64,000 nt of DNA from contig CM022679.1 in assembly GCA_012295275.1 (NCBI GenBank), positions 27,590,001 to 27,654,000 on the forward strand, written 5' to 3'. How positions within the stretch are numbered: position 1 is the first letter of the stretch; each line of letters begins with the position of its first letter. The notes beneath the pieces were generated by a model. That model did no database searches, was not told the origin of the DNA, and worked only from the letters and a program-made list of their open reading frames with translations. This document shows, piece after piece, positions 59,198 through 62,878 of this stretch. A program made the translations under genes and the position numbers. The DNA comes from Chrysomallon squamiferum. Its lineage: Eukaryota > Animalia > Mollusca.

Positions 59198-62172
59198 ATG
59201 TCTGTATTGAAACTGCAAATCTATCTCGTCTTACTTATTCTGGGATCAGTGGTGGCCAGGTTACCTCAAGACAGGGTTCGTCGAAAAGTAAAGTAAGATT
59301 CATTTTAACTCTCATACTGAGTGAATCCAAATGTAAATTATTTTATTTTCTAAGACTTATTTCTGTTCTTGTTACTCAACAAATATCAGACGAGGTTAGA
59401 AAATTCAAGACGAATGATTCCAGATTCAGACTGTTTAAATGTGTCTTTGTATATCGTATCTCGCTCTTATTTACAGGAATATGTTATAGAGAAAGATCTA
59501 ATTTCATTCACATTTTGTGTAAAAGGCTTTATTATATTATTATATATATTTCTTTTTTGCACATGCTTCAGACCACTGTGAGTATAATTTATCATTACAT
59601 GACATTCACACAATATTTCTGTCCTGTATAAAGAAACATACTGCATCAAGTAAACTAATGGCATACAAATTAAAATTAGGAAAAACAATCTGAGAAATAG
59701 TGTTTCCTTCTAATCCAATAATAAAAAAGAATTAGAATTATTAAGAGCTGATAATCAGTTTATGTTTCTCTTTCTAATTCTGTCTTTCTTTGTTTTCTTC
59801 CACAACTACAGCAACTTACACCCACGTTGTTATTTTACTAAATTGTACTCATATCAGTGTTCACTTTTCAAAAACAGAGAATTTACTTTTTTGTGAGTAT
59901 CACTTTATCTCCAAACAGAAGTGTATGTGTGTGAGAGAGAGTGGTAAACAATAATAATGATGATGATGATACTAACAGTACAGCCAAACCACCTACACCA
60001 CAAATGCAACCGCCATCATACAAAACATCATCAACAACAACAACAACAACAACAACAATAATAATAATAATAAATAATAATAATAATTGATGATTCTGAT
60101 GAATATTATATGTGATGATGAATAGTATATGTACAACGATGGATGGTAATAATAAGAAATGTTATAATTATTTCATTATTATGTCTGCTGAAAAAATTAT
60201 TTTTATTTTTATTTATGTGTGCCCTTCAGAGAATGGTATGTATCAATTACCAGTAGGTATCTTAAATGTGTTTACAGCAGTACCAAACAAATTCTTACAT
60301 CAAAATTGAAGAAACAAATACACATCTGACCTGTTGTAATTTTATGCACTTTAATATAAATATTTTTAAATGAATTTTGAGATGACTAACCATGAGATGG
60401 ATTCAAATTTATTTTTAAGTTCCGATACTTATTATTTGATTGATAATTGTTTCTCTTCAAAATATCAAACAAACAAACAGCCTGGTAAGTCTCATTCTCT
60501 TAAATTGTAAGACAATTTAATTCAGCAGAAGTATTATATATTGGGTCTTAGTTTTGTAAAACGTATCAGAAACCATTAAAACAAGTCTCTTTGATATATT
60601 CGTAAGTTAATAGAGAGCACCCCACCTGGAAAAAGAACTGAATGGGGATTTCATGCAGTATGAACATAAGGGCATTAAAACAGACGACTTTGATAAAAAA
60701 TAAATTGTTAAAAAGGACCTCATTATATATGACAATGCTGATAATGCTGAATTCATTTTCTAACAAATGGACACTCAATCAGTTTATGCTTTTTAAACAT
60801 TCACACTTCTTTTCCTGCAAATATATACTTTTTACTTCCCAGTATGTGAAGCATATTTATCCTTATTAGTGTATTGATTAAGGACTTTTTTCTTTGATTG
60901 TTTGTCACTTTTATTCTTTGTTTTGCTATCTGATAATATATCAAAATAAAAGTAACACAATCAAAACATCTTTTTTTTTATCTTTTTAAAACAGGTCGAG
61001 AAAACATTCGTGAGTCCTATTCTCTTAAACTCTAAGACAAATTACATCAGCAGAAATATTAGATTGGGTCTTAGTATTAGAAATATAAAGTACAAGTCTC
61101 ACTGATATATTTATAAAGTAATAGGTACCCTTAAATTTTGCCTTCGAAAAACATTAGAATGAGGACTTCATGCACTATGTTCATCATGACCATAAAACAG
61201 GACTTTTTGTGTGTGACAATGTTCATAATGCTGAATTCATTTTTCTAACGAGTAGACGTTCCATCAGTTTGTAATATAAACATTGAACTGCTTTTGCAGC
61301 AAATGTATACTTTTTCCTTAACTGTATATCTGAAGTATATTTATCCTTATTTCTGTCACTCGTATTTTTAATTTTGTCAACTCATAATACATCAAACTAA
61401 AAGTAATACAACCGAAACACTCAATTCTTATGACTGGATTTTTTTTTTTTAATCTTTTAGAAACAGATGGACAAATACCGGGTGAATTTTATGCTCTTAA
61501 ACATTAAGACAAATTACATCAGAGGAAATATTATATTGGGTTTTATTTTTCTAATATGTATTAGAAATGTTAAGTACAAGTCTCACTGATATATTTATAA
61601 AGTAATAGGTACCCTTAAATTTTGCCTTCGAAACAAATTAGAATGATGACTTCATGCACTATGTTCATCATAGCCTTAAAGCAGATGACATTCATTAAAA
61701 ATAGTTTTCGCAATACGCATAGAAACTATTAAATATAACTGTCACTGAATTGCACCGGTTCGGAATAAAATTATATTGTTCAATGTTGACAGGAGGCAAT
61801 TTCACCATTTACAAATAAAAGAATTCAGTTTGAGAAGACCGTACAAATGTCCAAGCTTATGATTTAAAATCTCTAAAAATAAGTGAAACATTTCACATTA
61901 CTGTCTAGCACTTTGTAAATTCATATCTACAAAGGTGAAGATATAATCACGTTTGTGAACAAACCCACGACAAAATCATACTCACATTAAATTTCCTAAT
62001 TGATCCTTCAGACAGTATATATTTTTTTTTTGCTAATAATAATAATAATAACAATAATAATAATAATTTAAAAAAATGGTAATTAAATTTCTATAAGATA
62101 TACTGAATTTAAAATCAAAGCGTTTTTCTCCAAATCTTAAGAATATCATGTGTACAGTTAAATAAAAATAAA

Positions 62173-62217
<45 letters not shown>

Positions 62218-62878
62218 GACAACAACAATAATAATAATGATAATACTCTTACACAGCAGTTCAGATAAACTTTGTATTTTAAAGACGATGTCAAAATGAA
62301 GAGAAAAGATCGGAACAGTTCGTTATCAAAAAACTGTATAGAGGTTATCTCAAGTAAAATAAAATAAAATGTAATTTGTATTTTCAGGATAATCGGCAAG
62401 CGATCTGTTTCCTCTGATTCGCCTCACATCAGAAGTTGTAAGTGTAGTACTTTTTGTCTAAACTAATACAAGAAAAAAATGTATATTTTTGTGGATACTT
62501 ATGTACGTAACTAAGCATATATCACTGAATGAATATATGTATATATGTTTGTATGTATGTATGTCTGTATGTATGTAAGTATGTATGCATGCATGTATGT
62601 ATGTATGATCGTATGCATGCATATATGTATGTGGATGTATGCATAAACGTGTGTATCTATGTATGTAGGTATGTCATCCATGTGTGTATGTGTATCTACG
62701 TATGCATAGATAGATACGGACTGAAGAATGAATGGATATTGATGAAAAATAATGTCTCATTTAAATTTCTAAATTCTTTAATTATTGGCGACAGAGAGCT
62801 GATATTATGTATTTATTTATTGTTTTTCTCGTTTCAGTGTCAGGAAAAGAGGGAGAAAGCAAGATGAGTTCACGATAA
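59198..62878 (+). CDS. P3: micro-exon-encoded prepropeptide (signal, furin site, amidation site), about 80 aa
   Basis: Exon 59198-59292 (MSVLKLQIYLVLLILGSVVARLPQDRVRRKV, phase 2). Micro-exons 59572-59577, 59878-59892, 60232-60237, 60995-61009, 61467-61481 (each CAG/GT, length a multiple of 3). Exons 62388-62437 (IIGKRSVSSDSPHIRS) and 62838-62878. Candidate 5'UTR exon donor at 58663. The large exons are more certain than the individual micro-exons. Confidence 0.72.
60485..61680 (+). repeat. About 500-bp tandem intron + micro-exon duplication, about 2.5 copies
   Basis: Units start at splice donors 60485, 61010 and 61482 and share CTCTTAAA..TAAGACAA.T..ATCAG..GAA.TATTA.ATTGGGT. Confidence 0.85.

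Follow-up and report, generated by a model that had tools for sequence, protein, structure and literature searches.

The window, i.e. the whole stretch of 64,000 nucleotides of Chrysomallon squamiferum DNA that was analysed, carries near its downstream end a predicted small secreted-peptide gene (59198-62878, forward strand), in which five micro-exons (M1 to M5; 6, 15, 6, 15 and 15 nt) lie between an exon for a signal peptide and an exon for the tripeptide Gly-Lys-Arg (the GKR exon). Each micro-exon is flanked by AG and GT and is of phase 2 at both ends. A second small secreted peptide gene lies upstream. Acceptors were ranked among 6843 AG sites with a model whose training set was 14 acceptors from the neighbouring fucolectin/EGF genes, and the features of the two genes are as follows.

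48881..50149 (+): second small secreted peptide gene, with exons 48881-48975, 49474-49491, 49848-49873 and 50103 to the stop at 50147-50149 (assigned by eye)
58664..58669 (+): putative donor (GTAAGA) for a 5' exon that is likely non-coding, the sole GTRAG donor within 58300-59197
59183..59292 (+): first coding exon, ATG at 59198, left in phase 2; acceptor before 59183 in the top 8.7%
59477..59482 (+): weak candidate for a further exon of 6 nt, with a good acceptor but the poor donor GTTATA; frame remains open
59572..59577 (+): M1, 6 nt, phase 2/2; acceptor top 0.8%, donor GTGAGT
59878..59892 (+): M2, 15 nt, phase 2/2; weak acceptor (top 12.5%), donor GTGAGT
60230..60235 (+): M3, 6 nt, phase 2/2; acceptor top 1.1%, donor GTATGT
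60485..60490 (+): orphan donor (GTAAGT), related by homology to those of M4 and M5
60485..61703 (+): exon+intron units duplicated in tandem with a period near 470-525 nt and with three donors; from self-BLAST (67-82%) and alignment
60995..61009 (+): M4, 15 nt with S-R-K-H as its whole codons, phase 2/2; donor GTGAGT, acceptor top 0.5%
61461..61481 (+): M5, starting either at 61467 after CAG (15 nt) or at 61461 after TAG (21 nt); donor GTGAAT
62012..62014 (+): weak candidate for a further exon of 3 nt; the acceptor is good and has a branch-like motif, the donor is weak; frame remains open
62388..62437 (+): GKR exon, phase 2 in and 1 out, acceptor top 1.8%; begins the Ser-rich C-terminal extension
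62838..62882 (+): last exon, phase 1 in, acceptor top 0.2%, stop at 62876-62878; AATAAA at 62877 overlaps the stop codon

The eight coding exons of the micro-exon gene join to 243 nt and an open frame of 80 residues without any internal stop, as checked by script for all junctions within 58000-64000, and the claim of an earlier note on this DNA that five frame-preserving phase-2 micro-exons join openly to the GKR exon thus holds at every junction. The first coding exon contributes 95 coding nucleotides (59198-59292) and ends at a GTAAGA donor, and the introns are 279-906 nt long. M1 to M5 make up 57 of the 243 coding nucleotides (23%) and 57 of the 72 nt of the mature region (79%), in agreement with their proposed placement inside the mature peptide. 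The lone donor at 58664 and the acceptor before 59183 suggest that a non-coding first exon precedes 59183. In case of M5, two alternative acceptors are in frame, the CAG (top 1.2% of AG sites) and, 6 nt upstream of it, the TAG (top 1.7%). Of the two weak extra exons that had been suggested, the one at 62012-62014 stands as a weak candidate, while the other is correctly placed at 59477-59482 instead of 59478-59483 and has a poor donor. A candidate at 59919, 26 nt after the M2 donor, was rejected as microsatellite; a 3-nt candidate at 60843 (acceptor top 7.7%), which is absent from the duplicate, was rejected too.

The precursor begins with a hydrophobic, signal-peptide-like segment of 20 residues (Kyte-Doolittle scan; signal and cleavage sites judged by eye), which is followed by a 9-residue propeptide that ends in a putative cleavage site RVRR (residues 26-29), a segment of 24 residues that begins with Lys and contains no Cys, GKR at residues 54-56, and a Ser-rich tail of 24 residues. 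From the sequence alone, this succession of signal, basic cleavage site, peptide and Gly-Lys-Arg is that of an amidated neuropeptide-type precursor, and the signals for secretion, furin-type cleavage and amidation stand in the order and frame that are set by the exon phases. Prohormones are processed by signal removal, a furin-type cut, here presumably at RVRR, a cut, presumably at KR, and amidation, which would start from the Gly. The product is therefore likely a secreted, linear and amidated peptide of about 24-26 residues that would be mostly encoded by micro-exons. As the second acceptor of M5 is in frame, a peptide of either 24 or 26 residues is possible, and of the amidated 24-mer that had been predicted, the segment length is retained whereas its exact ends are uncertain, owing to M5 being 15 or 21 nt long and to possible RRK trimming: the N-terminus could be trimmed by one residue further, and an internal RK in M4 might also be cut. 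The best helical moment is 0.37 at a net charge of +2, and a membrane-lytic role is less plausible because strong amphipathicity is not seen.

The second peptide gene at 48881 is built along comparable lines. Its 95-nt first coding exon ends in phase 2, an 18-nt exon of phase 2/2 and a 26-nt exon of phase 2/1 follow, and the last exon encodes GRR, so that the intron phase pattern is shared with the micro-exon gene. Four cysteines in the spacing C-x3-C-x8-C-x3-C precede the GRR, a spacing that presumably resembles that of disulfide-held helix-loop-helix peptides, and the gene is a putative small amidated-peptide gene. Its exon 1 had no Pfam match. Compared with exon 1 of the micro-exon gene, 31 of 95 bases are identical (P 0.53), and the protein score (P 0.0065) is in part due to the generic layout of signal peptides; these values do not prove that the two genes descend from one ancestor. 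This gene with its shared phases and the in-frame second acceptor that lengthens the last micro-exon to 21 nt are both new with this analysis.

The surroundings of the two genes are rich in duplicated segments. At 8267-32000 (+), three near-identical tandem units of 8 kb, in blocks mostly 90-99% alike, carry fucolectin-like and scavenger-EGF exons that are related to receptor phosphatase/MEGF10-like proteins of Gigantopelta. More copies follow at 34960-36760, and others lie at 250-460 on the minus strand. Tandem calcium-binding EGF exons of about 120 nt, each with its own duplicated intron, occupy 37100-43100 (+), and an inverted, apparently decayed set of such exons lies at 31640-31980. Among 19 candidates, an exon of the neighbouring fucolectin/EGF unit had three matches, all of them Gigantopelta aegis proteins (72-78% identical); other neighbour exons are 42-81% identical to proteins of this species, and the Atlas neighbours include one Mollusca cluster. 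These matches point to a gastropod, perhaps one close to the peltospirid snails of hydrothermal vents. The microsatellite-rich DNA had led to the guess of an octopus venom gene, which was dropped because the matches of the neighbour gene, out of 19 candidates scored, are gastropod, which makes a cephalopod unlikely. The GC content of 2-kb bins of the window is 23-39%; published values, in the available part of the source, are 34.5% for Chrysomallon and 37.5% for Gigantopelta (PMC7736800).

A few further elements were noticed. A non-coding segment downstream of the stop of the micro-exon gene (63547-63991) recurs about 8 kb upstream at 55632-56424, 76-85% alike in pieces, with no exon homology found beside it, and it is either a repeat element or the relic of a duplicated gene end. 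A signal-peptide-like ORF of 20 codons at 54228-54294 (+), whose stop lies 4 nt before a GTGAG donor, is possibly a dead third peptide gene. An isolated 18-nt candidate micro-exon between AG and GTGAGT lies at 33007-32990 (-), and 56123-56287 and 56545-56709 form a MITE-like inverted repeat of 165 nt (82% complementary, 257 nt apart).

Are the micro-exons real, given that such short segments could be bounded by AG and GT by chance? Pairs of a CAG acceptor and a donor within 18 nt were counted on both strands of the window, and the 3.1 kb that separate the signal and GKR exons served as test interval. With a generic GTRAG donor rule, this interval contains three genuine frame-preserving matches (M1, M2 and M4) and one microsatellite artefact (59919), where 0.10 are expected. 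With a wider donor rule, set after the candidates had been seen, four of the five micro-exons are counted against 0.25 expected (Poisson P 1.3e-4), and this count was reached in none of 1000 dinucleotide shuffles. In all 12 rule settings, P lay between 4e-6 and 0.018, with the count reached in at most 2 of 1000 shuffles. The interval was preset by the finding, and if some 40 such intervals on both strands are allowed for, simple arithmetic puts the middle rule at about 0.005. M5 escapes the counting rules because of the second AG upstream. Six of the seven coding acceptors (M1, M3, M4, M5, 62388 and 62838) rank in the top 1.8% of the AG sites, the exception being M2 at 12.5%, and the donors of M1, M2 and M4 are the consensus GTGAGT.

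The strongest evidence for a use of these segments comes from the tandem duplication. Three homologous donors (60485, 61010 and 61482) head related intron sequences that are 67-82% identical and extend over about 2.4 periods. The tandem duplication in which M4 and M5 had been placed is thus present, and it has three donors. In the flanks of M4 and M5, 339 of 422 aligned bases are identical upstream and 172 of 191 downstream (80-90%), and the downstream value of 90% may have been raised by gene conversion. The two exons themselves are of equal length and agree at only 6 of 15 bases (binomial P 8e-4 at an 80% background), and among 585 sliding intron windows of 15 columns none fell below 8 matches and hence none was as low as the exon pair. 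The claim that the duplicated 15-nt exons differ while their introns are conserved is thereby substantiated. As the AG and GT sites were kept around 15 scrambled nucleotides, M4 and M5 are read as coding exons, and this one pair of 15-nt exons points to diversifying selection on them. The orphan donor at 60485 indeed lacks an in-frame acceptor, as had been noted, since the nearest AG would give 4 nt and a frameshift with an acceptor that ranks only in the top 22.8%; this donor is likely the relic of a decayed sixth micro-exon. A reading of 13+4+4 nt via the same donor is open, but was rejected, as it requires two GAG acceptors ranked in the top 51% and 24%. In comparison with random segments, the flanks of M1, M2 and M3 gave no sign of an old relationship to one another; only the flanks of 60485, M4 and M5 and, weakly, those of M1 with 62012 stand out.

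These observations bear on the possibility that the splice sites are fortuitous or dead, in which case 59292 would join 62388 directly and give an amidated peptide of 5 residues, or the whole locus would be a silent relic. The direct join is open, the orphan donor shows that the array has partially decayed, and no homologue was found with exon 1 as query, but neither the enrichment of splice sites nor a full frame without stop is expected from such a scenario, and a neutral decay of introns would not preserve the splice sites at both ends of M4 and M5 while the inner 15 nt diverged. We thus regard this explanation as highly unlikely. The micro-exon locus is likely a real prepropeptide gene that resembles the micro-exon genes (MEGs) of schistosomes, outside the flatworms.

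If the micro-exons are used, they could be skipped in many combinations, and the gene would then generate a mixture of amidated peptides, 5-26 residues long, between fixed processing sites. With the 15-nt M5, 28 of the 32 exon subsets are open and give 12 mature lengths from 5 to 24 residues, and a weak M2 acceptor as well as the tandem acceptor of M5 would be compatible with variable splicing. Schistosome MEGs vary by exon skipping, as stated in the available parts of two sources (PMC4015677, PMC4350168). At both 6-nt exons, a TGC lies no more than 21 nt from the acceptor. According to the accessible text of PMC8797185, such a TGC marks regulated neural microexons in flies, but 108 of 614 background sites have one as well. 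The remaining four subsets run into a stop, because the join of M3 to M5 reads TGA with the 15-nt as well as with the 21-nt M5, and five exons are few in comparison with the 10-20 of MEGs. Moreover, tandem exon duplication alone would leave symmetric exons behind, even with every exon always included. The preference for an all-exon product over such a library follows from the fact that duplication explains the symmetry, that three donors are consensus, and that one junction gives a stop; a library is rather unlikely. The more far-reaching proposal that a molluscan MEG-style diversifier evolved independently inside a prohormone, with combinatorial splicing into an amidated library and with the 48881 gene as an earlier stage, seems unlikely to us.

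Could the product instead be a known neuropeptide, diverged or convergent, that acts on the matching receptor? Corazonin-like and, with the 21-nt M5, CRF-like readings were considered. Precursors of the corazonin/GnRH type have a G-K-R after the peptide and share a partial in-order match of residues with the gene described here, but here pGlu is missing, a propeptide is present, the peptide is twice as long, and five phase-2 introns lie inside. Seven of the 11 residues of corazonin, as given in the accessible text of PMC4971055, recur in order, and with lenient gaps only 4-39 of 20000 shuffles score equally (P 0.0002-0.002, uncorrected for the post hoc choice). This score requires M2 to M5 together, and at standard gap cost M3 to M5 are enough. 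At that cost, however, 409 of 20000 shuffles score equally (P 0.02, likewise uncorrected), 99 of 5000 reach the same common subsequence, and the match was picked out visually among hundreds of known peptides. The layout does not fit either, as corazonin directly follows the signal peptide (PMC10321317, as far as the available part of that source goes), whereas the peptide here follows a 9-residue propeptide and starts with Lys, not pGlu. In case of the 21-nt M5, the C-terminal part contains H-S-N-R and a final I-I-amide, which we take to be as in vertebrate CRF. Members of the CRF/DH44/ELH group are amidated helices of about 40 residues with a family motif, in contrast to the 24-26 residues predicted here. 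That two unrelated hormones fit about equally well is what chance gives, and a known neuropeptide is very improbable.

The gene is likely lineage-restricted. The exon 1 query had no match among 1.84 billion representatives; 11 candidates with lengths of 78-2000 residues gave nothing at E 10, the range of 24-77 residues had no candidates at all, and there was neither a Pfam family nor an Atlas match; as exon 1 is mostly signal peptide, these null results are weak evidence. Rfam gave no matches within 58000-64000, and neither exon 1 nor the GKR exon was found to have a paralogue within the window. No molluscan micro-exon peptide gene was among the literature matches listed (for one directly aimed search the best 25 of 213, with most subscription papers outside the coverage).

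The explanation that we consider probable is a mostly constitutive all-exon peptide in which the micro-exons are units of evolutionary change. The array would have grown by tandem duplication of exon+intron units, as is seen for the last units; after duplication, exons would have changed much faster than introns, as is seen for M4 and M5, and one copy may have lost its acceptor. The all-exon form would be the main product, with minor variants arising from the second M5 acceptor and from occasional skipping. The change would be driven by selection from an outside target, and as the exons change fast and no conserved homologue was found with exon 1 as query, the peptide would more plausibly be aimed at another organism or serve mate recognition, with symbiont control, defence or a pheromone as possible roles, than act on a conserved neurohormone receptor.

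If this is true, a molluscan prepropeptide with a mature part composed of exons of two and five codons would be a case of the MEG design arising again, and the locus would give a visible record of array growth, including duplication of exon and intron, exon divergence, and loss. Exons of this kind escape gene finders and tblastn, and a class of secreted peptides could therefore be absent from molluscan annotations.

Which known systems come closest? The octopod SF1 venom precursors (tachykinin, octotensin) are, according to the available part of the source, lineage-restricted, carry basic sites for cleavage and contain peptide motifs that arose de novo (10.64898/2026.02.02.703354). In being molluscan, limited to a lineage and equipped with basic sites they are similar to the gene described here, but SF1 is a two-exon ORF between NR-GRF and FABP, whereas here there are eight coding exons with fucolectin/EGF genes as upstream neighbours and a downstream neighbour beyond the end of the window. 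The sea anemone 8 (SA8) putative toxin genes likewise encode small secreted peptides with 3-5 microexons, of which one exon is variable, as the accessible text of PMC10210398 describes. SA8 peptides are Cys-rich, and the part of the source at hand mentions neither an exon+intron array inside the mature peptide nor an amidated linear product.

The closest likeness is that to the Schistosoma MEGs, which share with the gene described here the signal peptide, symmetric micro-exons of 6 and 15 nt, and introns of a few hundred nucleotides. Their mature region is fast-evolving, and here the corresponding observation is one paralogous exon pair (6/15 against 80-90% in the introns). MEGs have been described as apparently restricted to flatworms (PMC4350168), although micro-exon genes occur elsewhere too (PMC4015677), and in schistosomes they have 10-20 exons that make up to 75% of the coding sequence (10.1101/2023.06.21.545858), each as far as the available parts of these sources go. 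The gene described here, in contrast, is from a mollusc, its micro-exons number five and cover 57 of 243 nt instead of most of the coding sequence, and its product is predicted to be convertase-cut and amidated; a link in sequence is not to be expected. It thus works like a small schistosome MEG, yet with five micro-exons, 23% of the coding sequence and a non-flatworm host it is not a member of that class.
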